Positions 8,838 through 60,189 of a stretch of 60,189 bases of DNA are shown one piece after another. Source of the DNA: Terriglobales bacterium. GTDB taxonomy: Bacteria; Acidobacteriota; Terriglobia; Terriglobales; SCQP01. The position numbers were made by a program, and so were the translations under genes. The DNA is taken from NCBI GenBank assembly GCA_051959955.1, contig JBQCEU010000181.1, positions 1-60,189 on the forward strand, written 5' to 3'. The notes below the pieces were generated by a model. The model did no database searches. It was not told where the DNA came from and saw only the letters and a program-made list of their open reading frames with translations. Numbering within the stretch: the first letter of the stretch is position 1; every line of letters begins with the position of its first letter.

Positions 8838-10553
8838 ATGATTTACAATCGCATTGCAGCGCGCCTCGATCTCGGCAGGGGTTGCCGCTTTATAGTTTTG
8901 TGGGCCGCCTTGACCGCCGCCCTCGCTGCTGCCACGTTGCCGGGCCAGGGAGTGCTGGTGCACCTCAACTCCACCGATGTGGCTGGATTCAACTTCCGCC
9001 ATGCGACCCAGGCTTTGCGCCTGAACCCCACCCGCGACCTTTATCTGGTGGTTGCCACCGACGGCCGTACCGACCAGCAGCTCCTGACCGAGATACAGAC
9101 CGATCCGGTGGCCGTCAATCCGGTTCTCAACGCTCCCGTCGCCCTGGCGCAGCCCGCCCTCGACGGTCAGTCCACGGCTTCGGTGCTGAACGGTTCGACA
9201 TCTACGACCACTACCACCACCGCCAGCTCGGGCGGCCTGCTCGGTGGGCTTCTCCAACCTGTGCTCAATTTGGCTGGCAACCTGCTCAACCCGCTTCTGG
9301 GCACAGTGCTGAACGTCAACATCAACTTGGGCGGCAGCACAAGCTCGAGTGGAATTCTCAACTCCGCGCCCACGTATTTCTATGGCGCGGTGGTCCCCCA
9401 AGCCTATCCGCAGCAGAAGGCCGTCAGTCAGATCAGCGCCGGTTCTGCGGCTCATAATCTGGCCACCGGCAAGGGTGTGGAAGTGGCGCTGATTGACAAC
9501 GGTGTCGATCCGTTCAACCCGGTGTTGACGCCGTCTCTCGACGGTAGCCGCGGCTATAACTTCTACGACAACAGCCCCAATTGGTCTGCCTACGCTGACC
9601 TTGCCGATGGCCCGGCATCCGGATCCAATCTCGACGGCCAATCCACGGCTTCGGTGCTGAACGGCCAGTCCACCGCCTCGGTTCTGAATGGCCAGTCCAC
9701 CGCTTCCGTGCTCAACGGCAGTACCTGCCAACAACAGTTCGGTGCCGACGGTTCGCGGCTGAATCAGTCCACCGCTTCGGTGCTGAACGGCCAATCCACC
9801 GCCTCGGTGCTAAACAGCGAGGACAGCACCACGGTGATCAGCGAACTGAACCTGATCCTGGGCTGCGATCCGGATTTTGGCCACGGTACATCGGTAGCGG
9901 GCCTCATCCATCTGGTGGCGCCGCAAACCAGGATTCTGCCCATCAAGGCCTTCGGCCCCGGTGGCACCGCCGATGTGGCGGCGATCTACCAGTCCATCAC
10001 CTATGCCATTGACCAGCATGTGCAGGTGATGAATCTGAGCTTCAGTGCCACCGCCGCCTCGCCGGTCATCCAGGCGGCAATTCAGGAAGCTATTCACGAC
10101 GGCATCGTGGTGGTAGCGGCCGCCGGCAACGACAGCGGAAGCACCGCCGTCTACCCTGCTTCGCTGCCCGGCGTGCTCGGCGCCGGTGCGGTGGATGGCA
10201 CCCAGGCCGGCTTCCCGCGTGCGCCGTACTCGAATTACGATCCCGCGCCGGGCATCATTCAGAACGCGGACGTAGCCGCGCCCGGCACCAGCCTGTTCAC
10301 GACTTTCCCCGGCGGCGGCCAGATTTGGGCCACGGCCACCGGCACCTCCTTCAGCACCCCGCTGATCGCCGGCGAAGCTGCCCTGCTGGCGCAGTTGCAG
10401 CAAACCGGCGCCGCCGGCAGGAAGCTGATCGAGAACACCGCCAACCCCGCGATTACCGGAGATGCCCATGGCGAATTGGGCCACGGCATGGTGAACGTCG
10501 AGTCCGCGCTCCGCTCGGCTTCACCCGGCTTGTTGTCCTGGCTGCTCTGGTAA
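8838..10553 (+). CDS. Exported S8 (subtilisin-like) serine peptidase with a repeat-bearing insertion
   Basis: Catalytic contexts are present: VALIDNGVD (Asp), HGTSVAGLI (His) and GTSFSTPLIAGEAALL (Ser). It has an N-terminal signal-like segment. An AGGAG sequence lies 7 nt upstream of the ATG. Confidence 0.9.
   Translation: MIYNRIAARLDLGRGCRFIVLWAALTAALAAATLPGQGVLVHLNSTDVAGFNFRHATQALRLNPTRDLYLVVATDGRTDQQLLTEIQTDPVAVNPVLNAPVALAQPALDGQSTASVLNGSTSTTTTTTASSGGLLGGLLQPVLNLAGNLLNPLLGTVLNVNINLGGSTSSSGILNSAPTYFYGAVVPQAYPQQKAVSQISAGSAAHNLATGKGVEVALIDNGVDPFNPVLTPSLDGSRGYNFYDNSPNWSAYADLADGPASGSNLDGQSTASVLNGQSTASVLNGQSTASVLNGSTCQQQFGADGSRLNQSTASVLNGQSTASVLNSEDSTTVISELNLILGCDPDFGHGTSVAGLIHLVAPQTRILPIKAFGPGGTADVAAIYQSITYAIDQHVQVMNLSFSATAASPVIQAAIQEAIHDGIVVVAAAGNDSGSTAVYPASLPGVLGAGAVDGTQAGFPRAPYSNYDPAPGIIQNADVAAPGTSLFTTFPGGGQIWATATGTSFSTPLIAGEAALLAQLQQTGAAGRKLIENTANPAITGDAHGELGHGMVNVESALRSASPGLLSWLLW
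9168..9194 (+). repeat. Solo copy of the QSTASVLNG coding module in the subtilase pro-region
   Basis: The sequence cag tcc acg gct tcg gtg ctg aac ggt encodes QSTASVLNG, preceded by LDG as in the first tandem copy. Confidence 0.9.
9639..9818 (+). repeat. In-frame array of five 27-nt modules encoding QSTASVLN(G/S), as 3 contiguous copies, a 45-nt spacer and 2 contiguous copies
   Basis: Copies lie at 9639-9665, 9666-9692, 9693-9719, 9765-9791 and 9792-9818. The QSTASVLN core is identical in all of them, while the codons differ at synonymous sites (caa/cag, acg/acc, gct/gcc, tcg/tcc, gtg/gtt, ctg/ctc/cta, aac/aat). Confidence 0.9.
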
Positions 10554-10627
10554 GGTGCCAGCCGGCACAGTGGCCGTTTTACAGGCAGTTGCTGTAAGCT
10601 GACCGCTGTGCCGTCCTGGAGCCTCTC

Positions 10628-12700
10628 ATGAAATCCCGTCTAATTCTGCTGGGCGCGGTGGTCACTTTGTGGGCCGCCGCGCCGCTTGCTGCTCAGCACC
10701 CGGTAAGTCTGCAAGACGTAATGAACCTGAAGAGCCCCGGTTCCGTGGCCATGTCGCCCGACGGCCAGTGGGTGCTGTACACGGTGCGCGGCTGGACTCC
10801 CGCATCCGCCGGGCAGAAGAAGCCGGTAAAGGAAGAGTCGCGCAGCCATGTCTGGCTGGTCTCGGCCAGCGATCCATCCGGCGCCGGTGCTCCGCGACAA
10901 ATTACCTTCGGTGACAAGGGAGAAAGCGCTCCGGCCTGGTCCCCGGATGGCAAATACATCAGCTTTATTGCCAACCGTCCGGATCCTGACGACCCCGCTG
11001 CCAAGCCTTCGGGCCAGATCTACGTGATGCGAGCCGATGGCGGCGAAGCTCACGCGGTTACCTCGGGCGAGGGCGGTGCCTCCAGCTATGCCTGGTCGCC
11101 CGACGGTACCCGGATTGCCTTCTTGCGCGTTCCCCCCTTGAGCGACGCCGCACAAGCCGCCGAAAAGCGCGGCGACGATGTCGCCGAATATGAAGGTGAC
11201 TTCCGTTTGGCCCGCCTGTGGACAGTGAACCTGGCCAACGGCAAAGAGACAGATTGGACCAGGGGCGACGACTTCACCCTCAAGGGCTCCCCCGTCTGGT
11301 CCCCCGATGGTCGCCAGTTGGTTTTTGCCGCCTCCCCCACCACGCTGCTGCGCGACAATCGCACCAACCTCTATTTGTTGACGTTGGCCACCAAGCAGGT
11401 GCGCCGGCTCACTCAGGGCCTTTCCGCATCTTCCTCACCAGCCTGGTCGCCCGACGGCCTCTCCATCGCTTACCTTTTCGATCCTGACGCCTACAAGGCC
11501 CTCGGGGATGGCATCCCCTTCCAGGACAGCCACAATTCCCACCTGATGCTGCTCGATGTGGCCACCGGCCAAAGCCGCGATCTCTCCTCGCCTGCGTTCG
11601 ATCTCTACGCAGGCAGTCCGGTGTGGTCGCCCGATGGCCGCCAGATTCGCTTCACCACCGGTGATCAGGTCTGGCAGGACGTCTTTTCCTATGACCTCGC
11701 CGGCGGCCAGTACCGCAAGATCACCCATCAACAAGTGATTCGCCTCGATGACCGCAGCTTCAGCCGCGATGGCTCCCGCGTGGCCTTCTTGAGTGAAACC
11801 TCCACCGAACCGGGCGATGTCTATGTCGCGGGCAATGATTTTGCGGCGCCCCGCCGCCTTACCCGCGTCAACCCCCAGGTCGCCGATTTCGCCCTGGGAG
11901 CGACCACGGTATTGCACTGGAAGAGCAGCGATGGCTGGCCGGTCGAGGGTCTGCTGCTTAAGCCCGTCGGGTATCAGCCAGGCCATCGTTATCCGTTGCT
12001 GGTCAACGTCCATGGCGGTCCCACCGGCGCCTTTGCCAACGGCTTCGCCGCCTACAACCAGTTCTGGGCAGGGAAGGGATGGGCGGTGCTTCTGGTCAAC
12101 CCGCGTGGCAGCACCGGCTACGGTGAGAAGTTTCTGCGCGGCAACATCAATGATTGGGGTGGGGGCGACTATCGCGACATCATGACCGGCGTGGACGCGG
12201 CTATTGCCGCCGGTATCGCTAACCCTGACAAGATGGGCGAATGGGGCTGGAGCTACGGCGGCTACATGACCTGCTGGATCGTCTCCCAGACTGGCCGCTT
12301 CAAAGCCGCCATGATGGGCGCCGGGCTCAGCGACCTGGTGAGCATGTACGGCACCACCGATATCCCCAACTACCTCGGCGGCTTCCTCGGCGGTTATCCC
12401 GATGCCGCCACGCTGAAGCTGTATCGGGAGCGTAGTGGCCTTACCTATGCGGACCACGTTACCTCGCCGCTCCTCATTTTGCAGGGCGCCGAAGATGAGC
12501 GCGTACCCACCAGCCAGTCGCTGGAATTTTTCCGCGCCCTGAAGGATCGCGGCAAGACCGTGCGGCTATTCTTCTATCCGCGCGAGCACCACGGATTTGT
12601 CGAGTACTACCATCTGCTCGATCGCTACCAGCGCATTTACGACTGGATCAGCCATTACACCCTGGGTACCGAACCGGTTTTACCCGCGGAGAGAAATTAG
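10628..12700 (+). CDS. Exported S9 family peptidase (beta-propeller plus alpha/beta-hydrolase domain)
   Basis: Has a signal peptide (MKSRLILLGAVVTLWAAAPLAAQ) and repeated W-SPDG propeller motifs. The nucleophile elbow is GWSYGGYM and the C-terminal catalytic His context is EHHGF. Confidence 0.9.
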   Translation: MKSRLILLGAVVTLWAAAPLAAQHPVSLQDVMNLKSPGSVAMSPDGQWVLYTVRGWTPASAGQKKPVKEESRSHVWLVSASDPSGAGAPRQITFGDKGESAPAWSPDGKYISFIANRPDPDDPAAKPSGQIYVMRADGGEAHAVTSGEGGASSYAWSPDGTRIAFLRVPPLSDAAQAAEKRGDDVAEYEGDFRLARLWTVNLANGKETDWTRGDDFTLKGSPVWSPDGRQLVFAASPTTLLRDNRTNLYLLTLATKQVRRLTQGLSASSSPAWSPDGLSIAYLFDPDAYKALGDGIPFQDSHNSHLMLLDVATGQSRDLSSPAFDLYAGSPVWSPDGRQIRFTTGDQVWQDVFSYDLAGGQYRKITHQQVIRLDDRSFSRDGSRVAFLSETSTEPGDVYVAGNDFAAPRRLTRVNPQVADFALGATTVLHWKSSDGWPVEGLLLKPVGYQPGHRYPLLVNVHGGPTGAFANGFAAYNQFWAGKGWAVLLVNPRGSTGYGEKFLRGNINDWGGGDYRDIMTGVDAAIAAGIANPDKMGEWGWSYGGYMTCWIVSQTGRFKAAMMGAGLSDLVSMYGTTDIPNYLGGFLGGYPDAATLKLYRERSGLTYADHVTSPLLILQGAEDERVPTSQSLEFFRALKDRGKTVRLFFYPREHHGFVEYYHLLDRYQRIYDWISHYTLGTEPVLPAERN

Positions 12701-19660: not shown

Positions 19661-19792
19661 CGCGGAGTTCCGCGCGAAGCTCCGCCTCATCCTCTGGTTG
19701 CGCCGGGCCGGGGCAGAGGGACCCCGGCCCGGCAACTCTGGAGGTTCGGAGAAAGCGGGGTGGCGGCGCAGCCGCCAGGGCCCCCGCGCCAA
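19661..19792. repeat. GC-rich dispersed intergenic repeat, copy A
   Basis: Aligns with 59415-59537 on the same strand. The last 45 nt (ggagaaagCggggtggcggcgcagccgccAGggcccccgcgccaa) match at 42 of 45 positions by my count. It contains a GGCGGC-GCA-GCCGCC hairpin and, in this copy, a 9-bp GGGCCGGGG/CCCCGGCCC stem. Confidence 0.65.
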
Positions 19793-49361: not shown

Positions 49362-52300
49362 ATGATGGGAGGAGCTTTGGGATTGGGGCGGATCCAGTTA
49401 TGGGCGGTCCTTGTGTGCCTTTGCGCCGCGTTGGCGGCACAACAGCCTGCGGCGGTTTCCGCCCCCAACGCCGAAGATTTCACCCTCTATGCCGGCCGCC
49501 CGGTGGTCTCGCTCGAGCTCGCCGGCCAGCCCGCACTGCTCTCCGAGAACGCCGAGGCCGCCTTGCTGGCCAAGCTGCCACAGCAGTCGGGCGCCCCGCT
49601 CGATGTGGACAAAATACAGCAGTCGCTCGTCGTCTTGCGTGACGCTCTGCCCCGCGACCGCGTCACCGGCATCTCCGTGCACGTGGTCCCCGAAGTCGCC
49701 GGCATCCGCGTCCAGTTCCTGCTCGAGCCGGCGGAGTATTTTGGCGTCTTTCAGTTTCCCGGGGCGCTCCGTTTTCCCTATCTGCGCCTGATGGAGGCCA
49801 GTCAATATGCCAACCAATCCCCCTACAGCAGCCAAAGCCTGCAAACCGCGCTCACCGGCTTGCGGGATTTCTTTCGCCAGGAGGGCTACTTCCAGGCGGT
49901 GGTGCGGCCCCGCATCCAGGCGCTCCCGGTGCAAGGGTTGGTCAACGTTGATTTCGACACCGTCCTCGGCCGCCGCGCCCGCTACGGCGCGCTGACTTTT
50001 CAGGGCGCCACCGCCGCCCAGTCGCAGCGCATGCGCGCCCAGCTCACTTCCTGGACCGCCCGCCTGCTGCGCCGTTCCGTCATTCCCGGCCATACCTATT
50101 CCCTGCAGCGTCTCCAGGCCGCCGCCGCCAACCTGCAGTCCAGTCTCAACGACGAGGGCTTTCTGGGCGCCCAGGTGACGTTGGCCGGCGCCCGCTACCA
50201 CCAGGACACCAACCTCGCCGACATCACCTTCGAGGTCAAACCCGGCCCCCGGGTCGAACTCCAGGTCACCGGCGCCCATCTCTGGCCCTGGACCCGTCAC
50301 AGCCTGCTGCCCATCACCAGCGAAAGCAGCGTGGACCCCCTGCTGGTGCAGGACGGACAGGAGAACCTCGCCAACTACTTCGCCTCCCAGGGCTACTTCA
50401 CCGCTCAGGTCACCACCACGGTTCAGACCACCGCCCCTGGCGGCGCAACCGAAACCCGCGTCACCCAAGCCTCGGCCGCGGCTCTCGCTCCGCCTCCGCC
50501 TCCGCCTCCGGCCCCGGCCGCGCCGCCGGCGGCGAAATCCATCGTCTATAAGATTGATAAAGGACCGCGCCACGACGTGGTCGGCATCAGCTTCAGCGGC
50601 AACCGATTCTATGCCCGCGAGGATCTGCTGCCGCTGGTCAAGATTCAGACTGCCGGCGTGTTCAGCCACGGCAATTTCAGCCAGGCGCTGCTGCGGCAAA
50701 GCGTCAGCAATATCGAAACCCTCTATCAGAACTCCGGCTACAGCAGCGTCGCGGTCACGCCCGTGATCACCCACCCCGGCGGCAATCTGGCGGTTAACTT
50801 CAAAATCGTCGAGGGCCCTCAGGACTTTGTCCAATCCCTCAGCATTGAGGGCAACATTGTCAGCCCCGACCTCTTCGCTCCCCAGGGGCTGATGATCGGC
50901 ACCGGCACCCCCTTTGCCCAGCAGCTCATTGCTCAGGACCGCGCTCAGATTCTCGCCTACTACCTCTCCCACGGCTACCTCAACGCCACCTTCCGCGCCA
51001 GCGCCCAGCGTCTGGCCGGCCAACGCCATCTGGTCAATGTCATCTATCACATCTCCGAAGGGCCCCAGGTGCGCGCCCGCCGCATCCTTTTCTCCGGCGC
51101 GCAGTACACCCAGCCGCGCCTGCTCCAGCGCCTCACCTCCAACCTCGTGCCTGGCGCCTTCGTCACCGAAAACGACCTGCTCACCGCCGAAAGCCGCCTC
51201 TACAGTCCCGGCATCTTCGATTGGGCCACCGTCGCGCCGCGCCGCCCGATTACCGACCAGACCAACGCCGACGTGGTGGTGAAAGTGCACGAAGCCGCCC
51301 GCAATTCGCTGGTCTATGGCTTCGGTTTCGACCTCACCAACCGCGGCGGCAGCGTGCCTTCTGGAACCGTCGCGCTGCCCGGCCTGCCGGTCGTCGGCCT
51401 GCCCAGCAACTTCACCACCAGCCAGGCCACCTTCTTCGGTCCCAGCGTCAACGCCCAGTACACCCGCCTCAACTTTACCGGCAACGCCTCCACGCTCAGC
51501 CTCGGCGGCTATGCCGGCCGGCTCGATCAGCGCGGCTCGATTACCTACGCCAACCCCTACCTGTTCTGGTCCTCGTTCAGCGGCAACCTCTTGCTGTCGG
51601 CCGAGCACGACGCCCAAAACCCCATCTTCACCGCGCGCACCGGCGAGGCCAGCTACCAGCTTGAGCGCCCGCTCAACCCCGACCGCACCACCAATCTTTT
51701 CCTGCGCTACGGCTACAGCCAGACCCTCCTCACCCGCCTGCTTATCCCCGACCTGGTGCCCGAGCGTGACCGCAATATCCACCTCTCCACCCTCTCGGCC
51801 ACCTTCCTGCGCGACACCCGCGACAATCCCCTCGACGCCCACAAGGGCATCCTGGAGAGCTACGAGCTCGATTTCAGCGCCCAGGCGCTGGGCTCGAGCG
51901 TGACCTTCTCCAAACTGCAGACGCAAACCGCCTATTACCGGCAGATGGCGGATGGTATCGTCTGGGCCAACAGCCTGCGCCTCGGCCTCGCCCACGCCTA
52001 CGGCTCCAGCTTCGTGCCCCTCAGCCAGGCCTTTTTCACCGGCGGCGGCAGCACCCTGCGCGGCTTCCCCCTCGACGGCGCCGGACCGCAGAAAACCATT
52101 CCCGCCTGCAGTAATCCCAACGACCCTTCCACCTGCACCCTCATCCAGGTGCCGGTGGGCGGCAACGAGCTGCTGATCTTCAACTCCGAGTTGCGCATCC
52201 CTACCCCGCAAATCTGGGATCACCTCGGGCTGGCGCTCTTCTACGACGGCGGCAACGTCTTCGACCACGCCGGCCTCAACAGCATCGGCGCCAGCTACAC

Positions 52301-52433
52301 CAACAGCATCGGCGTCGGCCTGCGCTACCAAACCGCGGTCGGCCCCATCCGCCTGGATCTCGGACATAACCTTAACGGCCTGCCCGGCGTCCAATCCACT
52401 CAGTTCTTCATCACTCTGGGGCAGGCGTTCTGA
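49362..52433 (+). CDS. bamA: Omp85-family outer-membrane protein assembly factor (BamA/TamA-like) with POTRA domains
   Basis: Has a signal peptide and POTRA-like repeats. The C-terminal beta-barrel carries RGF (STLRGFPLDG) and ends in F (TLGQAF). Length is 1023 aa. Confidence 0.9.
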   Translation: MMGGALGLGRIQLWAVLVCLCAALAAQQPAAVSAPNAEDFTLYAGRPVVSLELAGQPALLSENAEAALLAKLPQQSGAPLDVDKIQQSLVVLRDALPRDRVTGISVHVVPEVAGIRVQFLLEPAEYFGVFQFPGALRFPYLRLMEASQYANQSPYSSQSLQTALTGLRDFFRQEGYFQAVVRPRIQALPVQGLVNVDFDTVLGRRARYGALTFQGATAAQSQRMRAQLTSWTARLLRRSVIPGHTYSLQRLQAAAANLQSSLNDEGFLGAQVTLAGARYHQDTNLADITFEVKPGPRVELQVTGAHLWPWTRHSLLPITSESSVDPLLVQDGQENLANYFASQGYFTAQVTTTVQTTAPGGATETRVTQASAAALAPPPPPPPAPAAPPAAKSIVYKIDKGPRHDVVGISFSGNRFYAREDLLPLVKIQTAGVFSHGNFSQALLRQSVSNIETLYQNSGYSSVAVTPVITHPGGNLAVNFKIVEGPQDFVQSLSIEGNIVSPDLFAPQGLMIGTGTPFAQQLIAQDRAQILAYYLSHGYLNATFRASAQRLAGQRHLVNVIYHISEGPQVRARRILFSGAQYTQPRLLQRLTSNLVPGAFVTENDLLTAESRLYSPGIFDWATVAPRRPITDQTNADVVVKVHEAARNSLVYGFGFDLTNRGGSVPSGTVALPGLPVVGLPSNFTTSQATFFGPSVNAQYTRLNFTGNASTLSLGGYAGRLDQRGSITYANPYLFWSSFSGNLLLSAEHDAQNPIFTARTGEASYQLERPLNPDRTTNLFLRYGYSQTLLTRLLIPDLVPERDRNIHLSTLSATFLRDTRDNPLDAHKGILESYELDFSAQALGSSVTFSKLQTQTAYYRQMADGIVWANSLRLGLAHAYGSSFVPLSQAFFTGGGSTLRGFPLDGAGPQKTIPACSNPNDPSTCTLIQVPVGGNELLIFNSELRIPTPQIWDHLGLALFYDGGNVFDHAGLNSIGASYTNSIGVGLRYQTAVGPIRLDLGHNLNGLPGVQSTQFFITLGQAF

Positions 52434-55400
52434 TGGCAGGCGGACTCAACTGGCGGGCTGGGCTGAAGTGGACGGCTGTTGCGATCGCCGCCGTCGTGGT
52501 GGTCGTGGTGGCCGCGGCTTATCTGATCTTTTCCAGCAGCCGCTTCCAGCGCTGGGCTGGCCGCAAGGCAGAAGCCGCGGCTTCTCAGGCGCTGGGGACC
52601 CCGGTCCACATCACCAACTTGCGCCTGCAAGGGTTTGGCCTTTCGCCCTCCGCCGATGTCTCGAGCTTCTCCATCGCCGGCCGTGGGCCGGCGGCCGCCC
52701 CGCCGCTGCTCACCGTGGATCACGCCCACGTCGCGGTGCGCATCACCTCCCTCTGGCGCCGCACCTGGCAGCTCGAAACTGTCGAACTCGACCATCCGGT
52801 CGTCCACCTCCGCGTCGCCGCCGACGGTTCCACCAACCTTCCCCAACCCCCGCGGGGCGGCGGCCAGGGTCCGGACATCTTCCAGCTCGGCATCCGTCAC
52901 CTCGCCCTTCGCCAAGGTGAAGTGTTTATCAATGACCGTCAGGCGTTGCTTGCTGCCGATCTGCGCTCGCTCGCGCTCAACGCCACCTTCGATCCTGCCA
53001 CTGAGCGCTATACCGGCGGCCTCGCCTATCAGCAGGGCAGTATCACTTGGGACAAGCACGCTTCGCTGTCCCACAGCCTTTCTCTCGCCTTTGATGCCGG
53101 CCGCGACGGGCTGAAGATTCCCCGCCTCTCGCTGACCAGCGATGCCCTGACCGTCACCGCTTCTGCCGTCATGCCCCGCTATGTGCCCCCCCAGGCCGAG
53201 GTGCAATATCGCATGCAGTTGGCGCTGGCCGGCTTGCGTCCGCTGGTCGGCGAACGCAACCTGCCGCGCGGCGCCGTGGACGTCGAAGGCACGGCAGCCT
53301 GGCGCAACGATCACTTCACCGCCCAGGGCCATTTCACCAGTTCAGAACTTGTGACCACCGCCGCCGCGCTGAGCCTTCCGGTGCGCAACCTCTCGGGTCA
53401 GTATCAGTTCACCGGCCGCGATCTCACGGTCAGCGGCATCGGCGCTGCCGTGCTCGGCGGTTCGCTGCGCGCCGAGGCCGTGGTCCACGATGTCGGCGGC
53501 CGCAACCAGGGCAGCTTCCACGCCCGCCTGAGCGGCGCGCGGCTGGAGCGCGTTGCCCGGCTGGCGCCCGCCGGCGGCCGCACGCTGGGTGAGCTGGGCA
53601 TTGCCGGCATCGCCGCCGGCGAAGCCACCGGAGCGTGGCAGGGCCGCTTCGACACGCTGGTGCTTCGTACCCAGGCCAGCCTTCAGGCCGGGGTCCAGGG
53701 CCAGCCCCTCACGGCCTCGCTCAACGCGGTCTACGACGCCCAGCGGCAGCTTCTCACCCTTGCGGACACCAAGCTGGAAACCGCCGGGCTCAACCTCACC
53801 GCCAACGGAACGCTCACCGCCGGCGGAGCTGGCGCCATCGCTCTCCAGACCACATCCCCGAACCTCGGCCAGGCCGAAGCCCTGGCGGCTCGCCTGGCTG
53901 TTGCGCTCGGCCGTCCGCTGCCGCCCTTGGGCCTCTCCGGGCAGGCGACCTTCCATGGCAGCATCGCCGGCCCGCTGGCTGCGCCGCACATCGCCGGCCA
54001 CTTGCAGGCCGCACCCCTCACCGTGCGCGGCGTGAGCTGGCGCTCCCTGGCCGCCGATGTCAGTGCCGCGCCCGACCGGATCCGCCTGCAGAACGTGCGC
54101 GTGCTGGCAGGCACCGAGGGCCGGATCACGCTCGACGCCACGCTCGGTCTTGCCGCTTGGCGGCCATCTGCGGCCAGCGCGGTTTCGGGCTCCCTCACCG
54201 CCTCCCATTTCGCCCTCGATCAGGTTGCGCCGCTCGTTCCCGGCCGCATGCCGCTGACCGGCATTCTGAACGCCCATGCCGCGCTGCAGGGGACGCTGGC
54301 CGCGCCCCAGGGCGAGGCCGTCGTTGCGGTATCCCAAGCCCATCTCCATATCGGCGGTAAGGATGAACTCGGCGGTGGTCTGCAGTCGTTCACGGTTACC
54401 GCCCATGGCGCCGGTGCGGTCATCACCTTCGATGCCTCCGCCCAGCTTCTCTCCGGTCCGCTCACCGCCCAGGGCAGCTTCAATTACCAGACCCGCTCCT
54501 TCCAAGGCGGGCTCCAGGCCGACAAGATGGCGCTCGATCGCCTGCCGGCCATCACCCGGCGCCGCCTGCCCATCGCCGGCGAGGTGAGCCTGCGCGGCGC
54601 GGGGCAGGGAACTCTCGCCGCCCCCACCTTCCAGCTCACCGCCACCGCGCCCCAGTTGGTGATCGCCGGCCAGACCATCACCGGCCTGCAGCTCGATGCC
54701 CGGCTCCAGGACAGCCGTGTGCACGCCACCTTCGCCGCCACCGCGCTCAAGACCGCCCTCACCGCGCAGGCGGATCTCGGCTGGGGCGGCGCTTGGCCCT
54801 TGCAGGCCCGGCTCGACGCACCGGCCATCCCCATCGCTCCCCTGCTGGTCGCCTTCGCGCCGCAGCAGGCCGAAGGTGTACACGGGCAGACCGAGCTCCA
54901 CGCCACGCTGAGCGGTCCGCTCACTCACCCCGAGGCTCTCCAGGCCCAGGTCACCTTCCCCACCCTTTCGCTTGCCTATGGCAGCACGCTGCGGTTGCAG
55001 GCGGCGCAACCCATCGAGGCGCGTCTCGAGCAGGGCGTGGTGACCCTCCAGCCGGCGCACCTCACCGGCACGGATACCGATCTGCACCTCTCCGGCAGCC
55101 TCCCGCTGCGCGGCAACGTGGCCGCCGCCGCCCTGCATGTGGCCATCAACGGCACCGTGGATGCCAGGCTGCTTGAGGCCTTCGTGCCCAACCTCACCTC
55201 CTCCGGGCGGCTGCAGCTCAATGTCAATGCCGGCGGCACGCTCGCCCAGCCGCACCTGGCGGGCGCCATCCAGATCAGCGATCTGGCCATCAACAACCCG
55301 GACTGGCCGGTGGCGCTGCAAGCCGGCCACGGCGCCCTGCGTCTGGCCGACGACCGCATGGATGTCACCGCCTTCGAGGCCAGCGTGGGCGGCGGCACGC

Positions 55401-56305
55401 TGACCCTCAGCGGCGGCCTCAACCTCGGCGCCGCGCCCCGCTTCAACCTTGCCCTCGCCGCCCGCTCCATCCGCTTCCGCCTGCCCCCGTCACTGCGCGA
55501 TACCGTCAACGCCGATCTGGTCTTCAGCGGCACGCCGCAGCAGGCGCTGCTCAGCGGACGCGCCCAGGTGCTGCAGGTCATGCCGGTTCCCGGCTTTGAC
55601 TTTGCCGCCCTGGCCACCGACCTCTCCACCCAGGCGGTCACCCTCGCTTCGCCCGACAGCTTCCTGCGCAATCTCCGTCTCGAGGTGGCCGTCACCACCC
55701 CCAACCAGATCGCCATCACCTCGCGCGACTTCAGCCTGCGCGCCAATGCCAGCCTCAACCTGCGCGGCACCGGCGATGCCCCCGTCCTTCTGGGCCGGGT
55801 GGACGTGACCAGCGGCGATCTGATCTTCCGCGGCAACCGCTACGTGCTGCAGGCCGGTACGCTCGATTTCGTCAACCCCACCCGCACCATCGCCAACGTC
55901 AACATCGCCGCCGACACCAACATCAACCAGTACGCCGTCCACCTGCGCCTGCAGGGTCCGGCCGACAACTTGCGCACCACCTACAACTCCGAACCCGCCC
56001 TGCCGCCCGCCGACATCATCAACCTGCTGGCCTTCGGCCAGACCACCGAATCCGGCAGCGCCAACCCCCTGCCCGGCAACCTCGGCGCCGAAACCCTGGT
56101 CGCCGGCGCCGTCACCAGCCAGATCACCGACCGGGTGGAGAAGATCGCCGGCATCTCCCACCTCTCCGTGGACCCGGTGCTCGGCGGCAACCAGCAGGGC
56201 AACGGCGCCCGCATCACCCTGCAGCAGCGCGTCACCGGCAACCTCTACGTCACCATCTCCACCGATGTCACCAGCACCCAGCGCGACGTGATCGAAATCC
56301 AGTAA
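52433..56305 (+). CDS. tamB: Translocation and assembly module protein TamB (AsmA-like), as terminated by an in-frame TAA
   Basis: Has an N-terminal signal anchor (WTAVAIAAVVVVVVAAAYLIF), a long beta-rich repetitive body and a DUF490-like C-terminal region. The ATG overlaps the bamA stop (TGATG). Confidence 0.9.
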   Translation: MAGGLNWRAGLKWTAVAIAAVVVVVVAAAYLIFSSSRFQRWAGRKAEAAASQALGTPVHITNLRLQGFGLSPSADVSSFSIAGRGPAAAPPLLTVDHAHVAVRITSLWRRTWQLETVELDHPVVHLRVAADGSTNLPQPPRGGGQGPDIFQLGIRHLALRQGEVFINDRQALLAADLRSLALNATFDPATERYTGGLAYQQGSITWDKHASLSHSLSLAFDAGRDGLKIPRLSLTSDALTVTASAVMPRYVPPQAEVQYRMQLALAGLRPLVGERNLPRGAVDVEGTAAWRNDHFTAQGHFTSSELVTTAAALSLPVRNLSGQYQFTGRDLTVSGIGAAVLGGSLRAEAVVHDVGGRNQGSFHARLSGARLERVARLAPAGGRTLGELGIAGIAAGEATGAWQGRFDTLVLRTQASLQAGVQGQPLTASLNAVYDAQRQLLTLADTKLETAGLNLTANGTLTAGGAGAIALQTTSPNLGQAEALAARLAVALGRPLPPLGLSGQATFHGSIAGPLAAPHIAGHLQAAPLTVRGVSWRSLAADVSAAPDRIRLQNVRVLAGTEGRITLDATLGLAAWRPSAASAVSGSLTASHFALDQVAPLVPGRMPLTGILNAHAALQGTLAAPQGEAVVAVSQAHLHIGGKDELGGGLQSFTVTAHGAGAVITFDASAQLLSGPLTAQGSFNYQTRSFQGGLQADKMALDRLPAITRRRLPIAGEVSLRGAGQGTLAAPTFQLTATAPQLVIAGQTITGLQLDARLQDSRVHATFAATALKTALTAQADLGWGGAWPLQARLDAPAIPIAPLLVAFAPQQAEGVHGQTELHATLSGPLTHPEALQAQVTFPTLSLAYGSTLRLQAAQPIEARLEQGVVTLQPAHLTGTDTDLHLSGSLPLRGNVAAAALHVAINGTVDARLLEAFVPNLTSSGRLQLNVNAGGTLAQPHLAGAIQISDLAINNPDWPVALQAGHGALRLADDRMDVTAFEASVGGGTLTLSGGLNLGAAPRFNLALAARSIRFRLPPSLRDTVNADLVFSGTPQQALLSGRAQVLQVMPVPGFDFAALATDLSTQAVTLASPDSFLRNLRLEVAVTTPNQIAITSRDFSLRANASLNLRGTGDAPVLLGRVDVTSGDLIFRGNRYVLQAGTLDFVNPTRTIANVNIAADTNINQYAVHLRLQGPADNLRTTYNSEPALPPADIINLLAFGQTTESGSANPLPGNLGAETLVAGAVTSQITDRVEKIAGISHLSVDPVLGGNQQGNGARITLQQRVTGNLYVTISTDVTSTQRDVIEIQ

Positions 56306-56395
56306 CACTTTACCCCCCGCGTCTCCATCACCGGCGTCCGCAAACAAAACGGCGGCTTCGGCGCCAACCTGCAGTTCAAAAAAACCTGGCACTGA
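56306..56395 (+). other. In-frame post-stop continuation encoding the expected TamB C-terminal strands
   Basis: Immediately after TAA (56303-56305) the same frame reads HFTPRVSITGVRKQNGGFGANLQFKKTWH, then TGA. This resembles the conserved extreme C-terminus of TamB/DUF490 proteins. Confidence 0.7.
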
Positions 56396-56613
56396 CCGAT
56401 ATAAGCCAGCCAACCCAACTATGTGGCCCCCGCCGTCGGCGGGGAGGAGGTCAGACGGGCGGAAGGCGGTAGCATCTCGGTTTGCGCCGCGCGAGGGCGG
56501 CCGCCGGCCACCGCCTGGCGAGGCGCTCCGCTTCGGCCGCTACGCGGCATCCGCTCCTGCCCTCGCCGCCGTCACAGCGGGAAAGCCGGACAGCTCGAGT
56601 TGATCGCAAAAAT

Positions 56614-56656
56614 GGGACATTTCTATCGAGCTAAAAAAGGGGACATTTTAATCGAG
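56614..56656 (+). promoter_or_regulatory. Pair of 18-nt direct repeats (GGGACATTTCTATCGAGC / GGGACATTTTAATCGAGC) abutting a TTGACA box
   Basis: The repeats lie at 56614-56631 and 56639-56656, 16 of 18 identical with starts 25 nt apart. TTGACA lies at 56659-56664. They sit upstream of the CxxC-protein operon. Confidence 0.5.
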
Positions 56657-56680
56657 CGTTGACAACTAACGACATGCCTC

Positions 56681-56709
56681 TTGACGCTCAAATCGCGGTG
56701 TGATAGCAA
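56681..56709 (+). promoter_or_regulatory. Weak candidate promoter (TTGACG-17 nt-TAGCAA) for the 56730 operon
   Basis: The -35-like TTGACG lies at 56681-56686 and the -10-like TAGCAA at 56704-56709, 20 nt before the ATG. The -10 match is poor. Confidence 0.25.
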
Positions 56710-56729
56710 TGTGACAGGACGAGATCAAC

Positions 56730-57332
56730 ATGAGCAGGCTTCCAGCCATGTCGCTAAGCGTTCAGTGGCTCGTTTGCGCCATCGCGATCGGACTGTTCTG
56801 TCTGGATGCCGCCCTTGTCCTGCAAAACCGCACATTGAAACGTGAACTTCGATCCGGGGGAACCTCCCTCGCGCCGCCACTCGGCGCCACGGTGCCCGGC
56901 ATCTCGGGAGTTGATTTGGCAGGGCACCCGGTAACCCTGACCCCGAGTTCCGGGAAATCGCTGCTGTTGTTTGTATTTTCCCCGGACTGCGCCGTTTGCG
57001 ACCAAACGTGGCCCAAGTGGGAAGTCTTGCTGCCGAAGATAGACACGCGCCGCTTCAGCGCTGTGTTCGCAAGTTCCGGCCCCGGCCTGACGAGGGCGTT
57101 CGCATCCGAGCACGGAATCTCGGGGTACCCCGTCCTGCGCGCGGTTGATCCAGCGACGGTCATCGCCCTCAACCTGCGCCTTGCCCCGGAAGTTCTGGAG
57201 TTCACCCCACAAGGAAAACTGCACGCTGCCTGGGTGGGTGGCTTGGATCGTGACTCGTTCGACCATATGGCTGGTGAACTCGGCGCCGGCGTATATTGGC
57301 AATCACCGGGACTTCAGGGGGACTCAGGATGA
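56730..57332 (+). CDS. Membrane-anchored thioredoxin-fold thiol:disulfide oxidoreductase (TlpA/ResA-like, CAVC active site)
   Basis: Has an N-terminal TM segment (WLVCAIAIGLFCLDAALVL), then SLLLFVFSPDCAVCDQTWPKW, the position and context of a redoxin CxxC. Length is 200 aa. Confidence 0.75.
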   Translation: MSRLPAMSLSVQWLVCAIAIGLFCLDAALVLQNRTLKRELRSGGTSLAPPLGATVPGISGVDLAGHPVTLTPSSGKSLLLFVFSPDCAVCDQTWPKWEVLLPKIDTRRFSAVFASSGPGLTRAFASEHGISGYPVLRAVDPATVIALNLRLAPEVLEFTPQGKLHAAWVGGLDRDSFDHMAGELGAGVYWQSPGLQGDSG

Positions 57333-57571
57333 AACAGTCTGCATCGACCTCTCGTTCTGCCGCACTTGTGGCAGCATTATTTGGCCTGCTGTTCGCACTT
57401 TGTGTCGGCGCGTCAGCCTTCCAATTGAAAGCCAGCTCAGACTATTCGCTGCGAGCCTGCGGTACGATCCAATGCTCTTCCGATGCGGAGTGCGAAGGGA
57501 CGTTTTGCCCCTTCTGTGACACGGCGGTGTCCGGCACGTGCCGCGATCATCTCACCGATACCTCGCGTTGA
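57329..57571 (+). CDS. Secreted cysteine-rich mini-protein (30-aa signal peptide plus ~50-aa mature part with 6 Cys)
   Basis: The ATG overlaps the upstream stop (ATGA). The signal peptide is MKQSASTSRSAALVAALFGLLFALCVGASA. The mature pattern is C-x4-C-x5-C-x4-C-x2-C-x7-C. Its stop overlaps a TTG start of the next gene. Confidence 0.6.
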   Translation: MKQSASTSRSAALVAALFGLLFALCVGASAFQLKASSDYSLRACGTIQCSSDAECEGTFCPFCDTAVSGTCRDHLTDTSR

Positions 57572-59304
57572 GAACTGTGCACCCCAGCACCGTCGTTTTG
57601 GCAGGATTGCTGTGCGCGCTTTCCGCCTCGCCTCAACAAGCCGAGGTGCAGGCACACGCCTATGCCTACACGCTTCCGCCCGTGATTATTACGGCCAACA
57701 CCCAACGAGTTGTCGTGGACGTAGTGGCGCGGCGCCCCGACGGTACGCCGGACGACGGTTTGACGCGATCGAACTTCATGATCACCGACAACGGTCGGTC
57801 CCGCGCCCTTACGAGTTTTTCCGTCCTCCGGGCCGCATCGCTTCGCTCCGCCCCCCCGCCGACCACCACCAGTCAGTCGCCGGCAACCGACAGGTCGGCG
57901 TCGGCCTCGCGATCCGTGGCCCTTTTCTTCGATGATGTCAACAGCGAGGGCACCGACCTGCAAAATGCCCGCAATGCGGCCACCCGCTTCGTCCACGAGG
58001 GACTGGGGCATACCGATCGCGTCGGCATTTTCACCAACTCCGGCTGGAGCGAAGTCAATTTCACCACCGACAGCCACCGTCTGCTGACCGCCATTGCGGC
58101 GCTTTCGGCTCACCCCCGTGCCACCCGCAGATCCAGTGACTGCCCGCACCTCACCGATTTCCAGGCCTTCCAGATCGCCAACCACCGCGGCGCCATGGCC
58201 CTGAACGCCGCCGTAATTGAGAAAAAGCGTTGCGACGAGCAGTTGGGCATTGTCGTTGACGATGGCAGCCAGATCTACAATGCCGGCCACACCATGGCCG
58301 GCTACGATAATCCATCGGAAGAGGTGTTGGTAACCGCCAATGCCCTGTGGGGTCAGGCCCGGGCCGCAGCCTACTCCACTTTAACCTCGCTGCGTAATGT
58401 GATCGGCTTGCTGGCTCAGCAACCCGGCAGCCGCATGTTGCTGCTCACTTCGGGCGGTTTCCTCAGTGGGACGCTGGAGACCCTTGAGGACCACATCGTC
58501 CAGGAAGCCTTGCGGGACCAGGTGGTGATCAACTCGCTGGAAGCGCGCGGGCTGTACACCCAGGGTCCGGGACGCCCGATTGACTATGTACCCGATCTGA
58601 TGAAACTTCCCATCCCCACCTATGCCTACGAGGAGAGCTCGAAACTCTCCGAAGATGCGGCCAGGGACGAGGCCATGGCCGATCTGGCCGAGAGCACCGG
58701 CGGACTGTTTTTTCATGACAACAACGATCTGACCCTCGGCTTCGACCGCCTCGGCCTTATCCCCTCCGTCACCTATGAGTTGAGTTTCGCACCGTCTGAC
58801 ATTGCCCACGACGGCCGGTTTCACAAACTGAAGGTCGAGATCACTCCCCAGTCCCATGACGTCGTCCAGGCTCGCCCCGGCTACTTCGCTCCCATAACTG
58901 TCTCCGGCCCCGGCCTGCAGGCGCAATTGGATACCGCGATGCGTGCTGGCGGTTCCGAGGCGGGTCTTGCGGTTACTGTCGCTCTCCGCCCCGTCGCCGG
59001 TAAGGTTACCGTGGAGATGCGCCTCGATGCCGCCCACTTGCCCTTTCAGGACCAGAAAGGCCGCCACCGCCTGAACCTGCATTTCATCGCCGGCCTCTTC
59101 GACGTCCAGGGCAAATTCGTCACCGGCAAGGAAGCCGAAATGGATCTGGCACTCAAGGACGCTACCTGGCGCCGCCTGGTGTCGCACGGCCTGAACACCA
59201 ACCTCACCCTCGACGCTCCCTCCGCCGCCTACACCCTCCGCGTCGTGGTCGCCACCAGCCCCACTGCTTTGTTCGCGACTTCACTCCCGCTCACCATTCA
59301 CTGA
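57568..59304 (+). CDS. VWA-domain protein of the Acidobacteria-expanded VWFA-related family
   Basis: Has an N-terminal signal-like VVLAGLLCALSASPQQA and a VWA-like core (VALFFDDVNSEG ... RMLLLTSGGF ... VVINSLEARG). The C-terminal beta-rich region is like TIGR03436-type proteins (from memory). The start could be TTG 57568, GTG 57577 or GTG 57538. Confidence 0.8.
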   Translation: MRTVHPSTVVLAGLLCALSASPQQAEVQAHAYAYTLPPVIITANTQRVVVDVVARRPDGTPDDGLTRSNFMITDNGRSRALTSFSVLRAASLRSAPPPTTTSQSPATDRSASASRSVALFFDDVNSEGTDLQNARNAATRFVHEGLGHTDRVGIFTNSGWSEVNFTTDSHRLLTAIAALSAHPRATRRSSDCPHLTDFQAFQIANHRGAMALNAAVIEKKRCDEQLGIVVDDGSQIYNAGHTMAGYDNPSEEVLVTANALWGQARAAAYSTLTSLRNVIGLLAQQPGSRMLLLTSGGFLSGTLETLEDHIVQEALRDQVVINSLEARGLYTQGPGRPIDYVPDLMKLPIPTYAYEESSKLSEDAARDEAMADLAESTGGLFFHDNNDLTLGFDRLGLIPSVTYELSFAPSDIAHDGRFHKLKVEITPQSHDVVQARPGYFAPITVSGPGLQAQLDTAMRAGGSEAGLAVTVALRPVAGKVTVEMRLDAAHLPFQDQKGRHRLNLHFIAGLFDVQGKFVTGKEAEMDLALKDATWRRLVSHGLNTNLTLDAPSAAYTLRVVVATSPTALFATSLPLTIH

Positions 59305-59414: not shown

Positions 59415-59537
59415 CGCGGACCTCCGCACAAAGCTCTGCCTCATCTTCCCGTCGCGCCGGGTTTGGGCCCAGCCCGGCATCGTCGAAGGCCGGGAGAAAG
59501 TGGGGTGGCGGCGCAGCCGCCGAGGCCCCCGCGCCAA
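59415..59537. repeat. GC-rich dispersed intergenic repeat, copy B
   Basis: Same-strand homologue of 19661-19792 (cgcgga..aagctcYgcctcatc..gcgccggg..ggagaaagYggggtggcggcgcagccgcc..cccccgcgccaa). It lies between convergent gene ends. Confidence 0.65.
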
Positions 59538-59559: not shown

Positions 59560-60051
59560 TTATTCCGCCCGCAGCACCCGCACCGGGTCGGTCCGCAGCG
59601 CCTGCCATGCCGGCCGCAGGCAGGCTGCCGCCGCCACCAGCAGCAGCAGCCCCGCCCCGCCCGCCAGCGACAACGGGTCCATGGTGCCCACCCCGAACAG
59701 CAGATGGCCCCACACCCCGCCCAGCAGATACGCGCCCACCAGCCCGATGACCGCGCCCGCGCCCACCAGCTGCAGCGTTCCGCCCAGCACCCGTCCGGCC
59801 AGCCCGCGCGGCGTGGCGCCCAGCGCCATGCGCACCCCCAGCTCCCGCATCTGCGTCGCCACCCGCTGCGCCGTGATGGCGTAAATGCCCAGCGCCGCCA
59901 GCAGCAGCGCCAGCAGACCGAAGCCCGCCATCAGGCCAGTGAGAAAATCGCGCCGTTCCAGCCCGCGGCTCACCGCCGCGGTCATCAGCTCCGGCGGTTG
60001 CAGCGTGGGCACCGCCGCTGCCAGGGCCATGGTTTCGTTCACGATCGCCAC
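59560..60051 (-). pseudogene. FtsX-domain permease remnant (ADOP/MacB-like C-terminal domain only)
   Basis: The C-terminal FtsX domain is intact (GIYAITAQRVATQMRELGVRMALGATP ... LRTDPVRVLRAE). The IVNET-type periplasmic-domain start is joined almost directly to the last TM bundle. The same frame has a TAG at 60124-60126, so no full-length (~800 aa) permease can be encoded. It is near the window edge. Confidence 0.5.
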
Positions 60052-60189
60052 CAGCGGCGCCCGGGCGTGATCGCCACCGTGGGGCCAATTGCTGGCCGAC
60101 CTGCAATACCGCCCCTTCCGCCCCTATGGGTGTACCGCGCTCCCCGGCACCCCGTCGCGCGCCCGGCGCGCGCCCCCCAAGCGCGCGGC

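Follow-up and report, generated by a model that had tools for sequence, protein, structure and literature searches.

Do three different genes packed end to end in an acidobacterial genome form a functional unit, and what might such a unit do? The question is raised by positions 56,730 to 59,304 of a 60,189-nt contig from a Terriglobales bacterium (NCBI GenBank assembly GCA_051959955.1, contig JBQCEU010000181.1, forward strand), the whole of which is called the window here. The three genes encode a membrane-anchored redoxin (g1), the precursor of an exported six-cysteine mini-protein (g2) and a VWA-related protein of the NCBIfam family TIGR03436 (g3), and are followed by the decayed remains of an ADOP-family permease gene. 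Acidobacteriota are abundant in soil, and both TIGR03436 and ADOP are expanded acidobacterial families that, to our knowledge, have no assigned function. We find that the trio is a conserved, rare three-gene module with a previously undescribed six-cysteine protein. Coordinates are collected in Table 1.

A three-gene unit in four lineages

A first reading made from the sequence alone (the sequence-only reading) had described a co-directional trio chained by start/stop overlaps, and the open reading frames (ORFs) and both junctions lie exactly where it placed them: ATGA at 57329-57332, in which the g2 start overlaps the g1 stop, and TTGA at 57568-57571 between g2 and g3. Three positions (57538, 57568 and 57577) are candidate starts of g3, and gene callers on related contigs picked 57577; the TTG of TTGA at 57568 is the sole start position kept in all lineages. 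Across the trio lineages the g1/g2 junction is ATGA, except for a 3-nt gap in the most divergent one (L111), while the g2/g3 junction is an NTGA overlap in all four (GTGA in L111). A Shine-Dalgarno-like AAGGAG or AGGGGG is found at -13 to -8 of the g2 ATG in three lineages. Because the TTG or GTG start of g3 is weak and has no visible Shine-Dalgarno sequence, translation of the VWA gene is probably coupled to that of the mini-protein gene.

All three genes are real, and purifying selection acts on each. The ratio of nonsynonymous to synonymous substitution rates (dN/dS) is 0.19 for g1 (against L015), 0.12-0.20 for g2 and 0.15-0.21 for g3, compared with 0.26 for the neighbouring tamB (two related lineages compared), and it falls to 0.03-0.05 in the 30 codons of the g2 cysteine core. 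These values, of about 0.2 for both genes and far lower in the core, make it very improbable that g1 and g2 are functionless leftovers in a disintegrating region, as do the intact frames, conserved starts, Shine-Dalgarno-like motifs and overlaps that persist out to 36% identity, although such decay would fit the deletion of g1 in one lineage, the independent decay of the neighbouring ADOP gene in two and the absence of the pair from the sister clade.

Four Terriglobales lineages were found to carry the trio, which sits in two different genomic contexts. The window lineage carries it on six contigs (L009-L014). The L001 lineage comprises at least 24 contigs from ENA, JGI and Logan samples, in which g2 is 85% and g3 81% identical to the window; in L015 the identities are 64% (g1), 63% (g2) and 70% (g3), and in L111, a Terriglobales metagenome-assembled genome, 36%, 36% and 48%. 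The L111 neighbourhood is unrelated, the trio lying after a polysaccharide deacetylase gene and before a ferredoxin gene, with no tamB. When the distance from the window to L111 is divided by that from the window to L015, the ratios are 2.57 for g1, 2.47 for g2 and 2.16 for g3, and this proportional divergence indicates that the genes were inherited as one unit. That the trio is a conserved unit and not a chance neighbourhood, as had been proposed, is thus borne out by gene order and tight junctions recurring in four lineages and two contexts; the peptide itself, whose restriction to a single genome would have spoken against that proposal, recurs between redoxin (truncated in L001) and VWA genes in each of them.

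The history of the VWA gene sets this unit in a wider frame. In the VWA tree a tamB-linked clade (98% bootstrap) holds a trio branch and a trio-less branch, the latter with the gene order tamA-tamB-VWA-BNR/sortilin, and the L111 protein falls outside it. With L111 outside the clade, it is more economical to assume one gain, with g1-g2 lost later, than precise insertions made several times over. An insertion of two genes before a resident VWA gene was also considered and dropped, since L111 has the whole trio elsewhere and the three genes diverge proportionally. Hidden Markov models (HMMs) of g1 and g2 matched none of the other fetched loci, so that the two appear and vanish together, and relatives of g2 were found solely in trio loci. 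About 85 more distant VWA paralogues (29-45% identity) have no tamB, redoxin or comparable upstream mini-protein; a further VWA contig (L112) offers just 139 nt of sequence upstream of its gene. The g1-g2 pair is accessory: the VWA protein can work without the pair, and the peptide can be maintained where the redox domain is gone.

An initial description of the mini-protein as an orphan confined to three lineages was softened once its L111 homologues, annotated as hypothetical proteins, were recognised at 36% identity. Single-sequence searches had missed the L111 g1 and g2 although both were in the searched collection, and more distant members of the two families may exist.

The encoded proteins

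The g2 product begins with a Sec-type leader whose n-region contains K2 and R9 and whose hydrophobic core is 17 residues long. The mature peptide has the spacing C-x4-C-x5-C-x4-C-x2-C-x7-C; leader, GASA/FQ cleavage context and spacing all agree with the sequence-only reading. The six cysteines are invariant across lineages, as are GA[SA]A at the cleavage site and CP[FY]C. Two inter-cysteine loops vary in length, from 4 to 11 and from 7 to 4 residues in L111, with all six cysteines kept, and the C-x3/4-C and CP[FY]C knuckle spacing is likewise retained while other loops vary.

The claim that this peptide belongs to no described family held throughout. Pfam and NCBIfam gave no match, PDB sequences returned nothing significant (RING-like chance matches only, the CBL RING among them, at E 0.1 or worse), and a Foldseek search with an AlphaFold2 model of the mature peptide (predicted local distance difference test, pLDDT, 52) gave no match with E < 6. 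An exhaustive phmmer search of 1.84 billion representatives recovered the peptide's own cluster and two further matches that we judged spurious. One of these is a low-complexity protein. The other, the best match outside the cluster, is a presumably eukaryotic protein of 952 aa with CEGWHCPLC repeats, in which six to eight C-x5-C-x4-C-x2-C modules sum to E 1.8e-8. The likeness to this repeat protein and to the CBL RING probably reflects convergent zinc-knuckle-like spacing. As the C-x3/4-C and CPxC knuckle spacing is kept and zinc-knuckle-like, the mini-protein may bind metal.

The g1 product had been described as a transmembrane-anchored redoxin with a CAVC site, and both the hydrophobic segment and the site are present. 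Its AlphaFold2 model, of moderate confidence (pLDDT 70.7, predicted template modelling score 0.62, from an alignment of three sequences), comprises a long N-terminal helix, a beta-hairpin and a thioredoxin core with a central insert, in a strand and helix order that fits the ResA/TlpA fold. The best Foldseek matches of the model are ResA (4nmu, 1st9), TlpA (1jfu, 4txo), Etrx2 and AhpE, at E 1e-7 to 1e-5 and TM-scores of 0.6-0.69 normalised on the target. A profile of the three g1 lineages covers the full domain of Bacillus subtilis ResA (E 0.003), the CxxC aligning with the ResA CEPC and P153 with its PLPTTF, the proline of which we take, from the ResA structure, to be the cis-proline. C87, C90, W94, P95, W97 and P153-E-V-L are invariant in three lineages, in which the active site reads CAVC, CGIC or CEVC. 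PDI-type alignments had put the cis-proline loop at GYP (aa 132-134); that placement was rejected, as the ResA alignment points to P153 and the stretch is GYQ in L111. On the model and these alignments, g1 is assigned to the ResA/TlpA fold class, with CxxC and cis-proline conserved. The characterised members of the ResA/TlpA group are extracytoplasmic reductants and not oxidants. This fold class therefore favours reduction or isomerisation over oxidation.

The g3 product matches TIGR03436 over profile positions 3-324 of 324 (E 3.4e-50, 171.4 bits against a cut-off of 81.25), and DDVNS stands where the metal-ion-dependent adhesion site (MIDAS) would read DxSxS; the VWA assignment and the deviant motif had both been noted before. 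All 21 aligned members of the subfamily, down to 37% identity, share FFDD[VI][NH][TS] and the cysteine pair. Relatives at E < 1e-20 number 222 and are named 'VWFA-related protein' in their sources. A Pfam scan of g3 gave no match at E < 0.1, to VWA or any other model, three of the 21 relatives touch Pfam VWA_2 (best E 0.021), and PDB searches with the single sequence and with a 21-sequence profile returned no VWA chain; the label 'VWA' for g3 thus derives from the NCBIfam sequence model. A full-text literature search for TIGR03436 found no paper.

None of 127 fetched proteins has a g1 or g2 domain fused to a VWA protein, and a scan for non-homologous cysteine-rich secreted ORFs upstream of 62 other VWA paralogues yielded spurious ORFs only. 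In a locus without tamB or trio (L110, 5001-8497), a VWA homologue of 47% identity shares the last base of its stop codon with the first base of the next gene, which encodes 585 aa; this second gene has no Pfam match on record and may be a tandem paralogue of the VWA gene.

Table 1. Features of the trio and its flanks in the window
Feature	Position	Strand	Basis or remark
g1 (redoxin)	56730-57332	+	ORF, 200 aa
g1 hydrophobic transmembrane segment, aa 13-31	56766-56822	+	hydrophobicity; one segment only
g1 active site C87-A-V-C90	56988-56999	+	sequence
g1 cis-Pro P153	57186-57188	+	alignment to ResA
g2 (mini-protein precursor)	57329-57571	+	ORF, 80 aa
g2 signal peptide, aa 1-30	57329-57418	+	Sec-type; predicted cleavage after GASA (GASA/FQ)
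g2 mature mini-protein, 50 aa	57419-57568	+	six invariant Cys, CP[FY]C motif
g3 (secreted, TIGR03436-type VWA-related)	57568-59304	+	578 aa counted from TTG of TTGA
g3 DDVNS in place of DxSxS	57931-57945	+	sequence; departs from canonical MIDAS
g3 invariant Cys pair	58141-58143 and 58231-58233	+	invariant in 21 homologues, within insert
tamA	49362-52433		upstream of tamB (context); Omp85 and POTRA matches
tamB	52433-56305	+	Pfam TamB, YhdP, DUF748 matches
24-nt direct repeat, two copies in tandem (GGGACATTTnnATCGAGC core)	56608-56657	+	26 nt start-to-start; upstream of TTGACA box
Promoter-like stretch	56659-56709	+	sequence; TTGACA 56659-56664; TTGACG 56681-56686; 17-nt spacer; TGA-TAGCAA 56701-56709
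ADOP-family (MacB/FtsX-like) permease, decayed 3' part	59560-60189	-	TIGR03434 and FtsX matches

Possible functions of the module

The reading that we favour, though we put it a little short of an even chance, is that of an accessory operon: the redoxin would take care of the mini-protein's cysteines, and the mini-protein would work with the VWA protein. The redoxin would act on the thiols of its partner outside the cytoplasm, probably keeping the six cysteines reduced or reshuffling them, as ResA, CcmG, TlpA and MauD do with their own single clients. Once matured, the mini-protein could join the VWA protein, either as a small subunit or as a ligand, and the gene overlap would tie synthesis of the VWA protein to that of the mini-protein. 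The enzyme-client relation, the redox direction, the peptide-VWA contact and the periplasmic location of g1 are all elements that we infer. Dedicated redoxins have precedents in ResA and CcmG, which act with apocytochrome c. TlpA reduces ScoI and COX II (CoxB) (PMC6696091), and MauD acts on the small subunit, with six disulfides, of methylamine dehydrogenase (bioRxiv 10.64898/2026.03.05.709764). A more specific version, which we consider doubtful as a whole, would make g2 the founder of a new family of exported bacterial six-cysteine mini-proteins, either disulfide-knotted or with a zinc or copper knuckle; it would be matured by its own ResA/TlpA-like enzyme and serve as an obligate small subunit or ligand of a MIDAS-less VWA-like protein whose gene lies beside the outer-membrane assembly genes TamAB.

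Several observations weigh against the accessory-operon reading. The nearest trio-less VWA orthologues, at 52-54% identity and in four lineages directly after tamB, do without g1 and g2, so the VWA protein works without the peptide. Both the DDVNS motif and the cysteine pair are subfamily-wide and hence not trio-specific, and no VWA feature tracks the peptide. In the L001 lineage an in-frame deletion of 345 bp (115 codons) removes the whole thioredoxin core of g1, including the CxxC, while the anchor, the ATGA junction and intact g2 and g3 are kept. The deletion recurs in independent assemblies and so is not an artefact, and with g2 and g3 intact beside it, the redoxin appears dispensable at least over short evolutionary times.

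On the side of the redoxin itself, g1 scores below the cut-offs of all curated HMMs that it touches: 17.3 bits against 26 for PF00578 (AhpC-TSA), 14.9 against 230 for TlpA NF047696 and 12.1 against 188.6 for MauD TIGR02661 (E 0.097). Its orientation is ambiguous as well. The lysines and arginines flanking the anchor on its N- and C-terminal sides number 1/4 in the window (the lone N-flank residue being an Arg), 3/4 in L015 and 4/4 in L111 (the last counted by eye), and a basic stretch, QNRxLKRxLR, is conserved just after the anchor. By the positive-inside rule the window counts would put the g1 domain in the cytoplasm, the L015 and L111 counts are ambiguous, and the rule does not settle the orientation, which we propose to be periplasmic. 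No CcdA, DsbD, MauE or DsbB family member appears in the gene lists of the trio loci. The AlphaFold2 model of mature g2, finally, is unreliable and supports no statement on fold or disulfide pairing.

Two functional proposals of the sequence-only reading have to be adjusted accordingly. A redoxin dedicated to oxidative folding of the peptide was not established, given a ResA/TlpA-type fold, the loss of the core in the L001 lineage and the unsettled orientation. The peptide as ligand, inhibitor or cofactor of the VWA protein gains from co-inheritance and gene overlap, and loses from nearest orthologues without partners and from a MIDAS motif and cysteine pair that are family-wide.

The truncated g1 of the L001 lineage (L001 7747-8004) is an 85-codon ORF that retains start, anchor, linker and the ATGA junction, with a dN/dS of 0.31 relative to the window. 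It may be kept just for the coupled translation of g2, or its anchor and linker may themselves have a function.

The same VWA orthologues, which occupy the same chromosomal site without the pair, would be expected if g1 and g2 formed an independent cassette, for example a ResA/TlpA-type reductase that keeps a periplasmic, cysteine-rich metal-binding protein reduced for metal loading and has no contact with the VWA protein, the VWA gene being merely the downstream gene of the g1-g2 transcript. We take this possibility seriously while placing it, including the passive role that it gives the VWA gene, on the unlikely side. The joint gain and loss of g1 and g2 suits it, as does the variable gap between tamB and the VWA gene, which holds a DUF5996 gene in L104 and, in L001, an HTH_23-like (homeodomain-like helix-turn-helix) fragment beside the g1 remnant. 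So do the retained C-x3/4-C and CP[FY]C knuckle spacing amid varying loops, the weak zinc-knuckle likeness of mature g2 (CBL RING at E 0.1; the CEGWHCPLC repeat protein at a summed E of 1.8e-8), and the fact that the characterised ResA/TlpA-type enzymes are reductants, with TlpA and ScoI as an analogy (PMC6696091). A cassette indifferent to its downstream gene would not, however, be expected to precede a VWA homologue in the unrelated L111 neighbourhood, again with a 4-nt overlap, nor to diverge in proportion with that gene; moreover, g2 and g3 stayed side by side when the g1 core was lost in the L001 lineage, the pair was never seen without a VWA gene in the four lineages known, and in our reading of the g2 alignment no conserved His or Met suggests a metal site.

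The narrow, patchy distribution of the trio, its loss in sister lineages and its low G+C content at third codon positions (GC3) would also be compatible with an exported effector: a small protein with a Sec signal peptide and six invariant cysteines could be a disulfide-stabilised toxin, inhibitor or signal, loosely bacteriocin-like, with the redoxin as maturation factor and the VWA protein either unrelated or a carrier. Thioredoxin-like accessory proteins do accompany some disulfide-containing bacteriocins. Typical marks of a bacteriocin locus, such as an immunity gene or a C39-peptidase exporter, do not, however, appear in the gene lists of the loci. The ADOP permease gene beside the trio is in decay, and L111 lacks it; PADLOC found no defence system; and selection is strongly purifying, the mature region having diversified little, a pattern unlike that of typical conflict genes. 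We regard an effector role as distinctly improbable.

Composition, flanking sequence and known systems

The sequence-only reading had called the block a compositionally distinct islet bracketed by repeats. As regards composition it was right: the GC content of the trio block (0.620; whole window 0.671) ranks among the lowest 2% when stretches of 2.6 kb are slid along the sequence, and the block is distinguishable from its flanks in both windowed GC and GC3. In the window GC3 is 0.68 for g1, 0.59 for g2 and 0.76 for g3, compared with 0.85 for tamA and tamB, and g1 and g2 have the lowest values among all window genes. The window's other low-GC stretch (4-16 kb) holds unremarkable genes, rho and several peptidase genes among them, whose GC3 is 0.73-0.86.

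Whether the low GC stems from a foreign donor is a question of origin, and a horizontally acquired islet would be compatible with any of the functional readings. In its favour, the GC3 of g1, g2 and g3 lies below that of their neighbours in all four lineages (0.70, 0.64 and 0.76 against 0.91 in L015; 0.76, 0.80 and 0.80 against 0.86-0.89 in L111); two different genomic contexts, and a fragment resembling the helix-turn-helix of an insertion sequence near the trio in one lineage, point the same way. The hallmarks of an island are nevertheless missing at the window locus, where no tRNA, integrase or transposase and no matching flanking repeats were found, and the viral contigs searched yielded nothing. 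The VWA gene, moreover, falls in the clade with 98% support, whose trio-less members likewise lie next to tamB, and its GC3 of 0.75-0.80 in trio genomes is close to the 0.78-0.83 of trio-less genomes, whose flanks are less GC-rich, so that part of the contrast is due to the GC-richer flanks of the trio genomes. Horizontal acquisition of the block accordingly has little likelihood in our estimate, and of the earlier islet claim the low GC3, recurring in four lineages, stands, while hallmarks of an island are lacking.

Nor do the repeats bracket the block as a matching pair. The upstream 24-nt tandem repeat and a downstream 45-nt GC-rich element are unrelated to one another; the only repeat common to both flanks, of 15 nt with two mismatches, was discarded as being at chance level by our estimate. 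The 45-nt element occurs at 59493-59537, in the g3-ADOP spacer, and at 19748-19792, within the long reading frame of an S41 peptidase gene, the copies being 93% identical.

Upstream of g1, the core of the 24-nt repeat has two matches only in the window, against 0.37 expected by chance, and could, judging from its sequence, be a regulator-binding site. The promoter-like stretch next to it ends 20 nt before the g1 ATG, and a block CTCTTGAC..AAATCGCGG.GTGATA.CAATG is conserved in the L001 lineage. A consensus promoter scanner did not call the stretch, as its -10 box ends in A, and from the motifs we weakly infer that it may act as the g1 promoter. Direct repeats lie upstream of a TTGAC(A/G) box before g1 in all four lineages (those outside the window identified by eye), at 56608-56664 in the window, about 7630-7690 in L001, 3190-3235 in L015 and 3245-3285 in L111; they recur about every 24-26 nt except in L111, where the period is about 17-18 nt, and their sequences differ between lineages. 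This layout of repeat and TTGAC box resembles that of an activator-dependent promoter. From 56.0 to 60.2 kb, Rfam returned no RNA element, and a scan for terminator-like sites gave four against 2.8 expected from shuffled sequences, nothing beyond chance.

The order tamA-tamB-VWA, with a VWA gene of this TIGR03436 subfamily, is found in seven Terriglobales lineages (window 49362-59304; L001, L015 and L103-L108), and two BNR/sortilin genes follow wherever the contig reaches that far. This synteny hints at an outer-membrane or TAM-related role of the VWA subfamily. In a trio-less lineage a DUF5996 gene occupies the tamB-VWA gap on the minus strand (L104 and L105, 4054-4959). In the L001 lineage the tamB-g1 spacer has been swapped for unrelated DNA that contains a 75-aa ORF (L001 7378-7605, minus strand) with a weak, below-cut-off match to HTH_23 (E 1.9e-4), which we suspect to be an insertion-sequence remnant. 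The DUF5996 gene and the HTH_23-like fragment together mark the gap between tamB and the VWA gene as a variable spot.

The permease downstream of g3 is decayed, as had been read from the sequence: relative to an intact 784-aa copy (L009 6678-9032) on a 98.4%-identical contig, the one in the window lacks an internal segment and is interrupted by an in-frame stop. The L001 copy (10015-12348) is broken in various ways in different samples (L001-L008), and the decay looks independent and ongoing.

Among known systems, the closest to g1 are ResA, CcmG (DsbE) and TlpA, with which it shares an N-terminal hydrophobic anchor, a thioredoxin fold with an N-terminal beta-hairpin and a central insert, CxxC and cis-proline at aligned positions, and a gene beside that of an exported, cysteine-bearing possible client. 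It differs from them in falling under all curated family cut-offs, in an active-site dipeptide without proline (CAVC, CGIC, CEVC) and no Trp before the first cysteine, in an anchor followed by the basic stretch, which leaves its orientation unsettled, in a putative client that is an orphan six-cysteine mini-protein and not a cytochrome or copper protein, and in having no CcdA or DsbD gene nearby.

MauD offers a parallel of another kind, being a thioredoxin-like CxxC protein that serves a small, very cysteine-rich periplasmic protein (bioRxiv 10.64898/2026.03.05.709764), and TIGR02661 does match g1 faintly (E 0.097). At some 12 bits against a cut-off of 189, however, g1 is not a member of that family; no MauE, MauA or other mau genes occur in the trio loci, and none of the searches made here relates the mini-protein to MauA.

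The mini-protein recalls knottin- and EGF-like peptides in its roughly 50 residues, its export, its six cysteines and its loop lengths, which lie within the broad knottin range; it departs from them in that no sequence or fold match was found, the model is unreliable (pLDDT 52), two of its loops change length, and its C-x3/4-C and CPxC motifs fit a metal site equally well.

The VWA-related protein lies well above the curated cut-off of TIGR03436 (acidobact_VWFA, an expanded family of secreted acidobacterial proteins), yet its subfamily has FFDD[VI][NH][TS] in place of DxSxS and an invariant cysteine pair in an insert, is barely seen by Pfam VWA models and unseen by PDB sequence profiles, and has a redoxin and a mini-protein upstream in four lineages only.

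The distribution of the trio is narrow, and the theme of a dedicated periplasmic redoxin with its client is already well known. Within that theme, should the enzyme-client relation prove true, g1 would add another single-client enzyme of the ResA/TlpA type, with an orphan six-cysteine protein as its client. The trio also comes with natural controls, a lineage in which the redox domain has been deleted and a sister clade that has no pair. As a defined set of three proteins it is a possible entry point to the TIGR03436 family, and if it does form a three-part envelope module, that module would be undescribed in Acidobacteriota and would give a first functional handle on TIGR03436.

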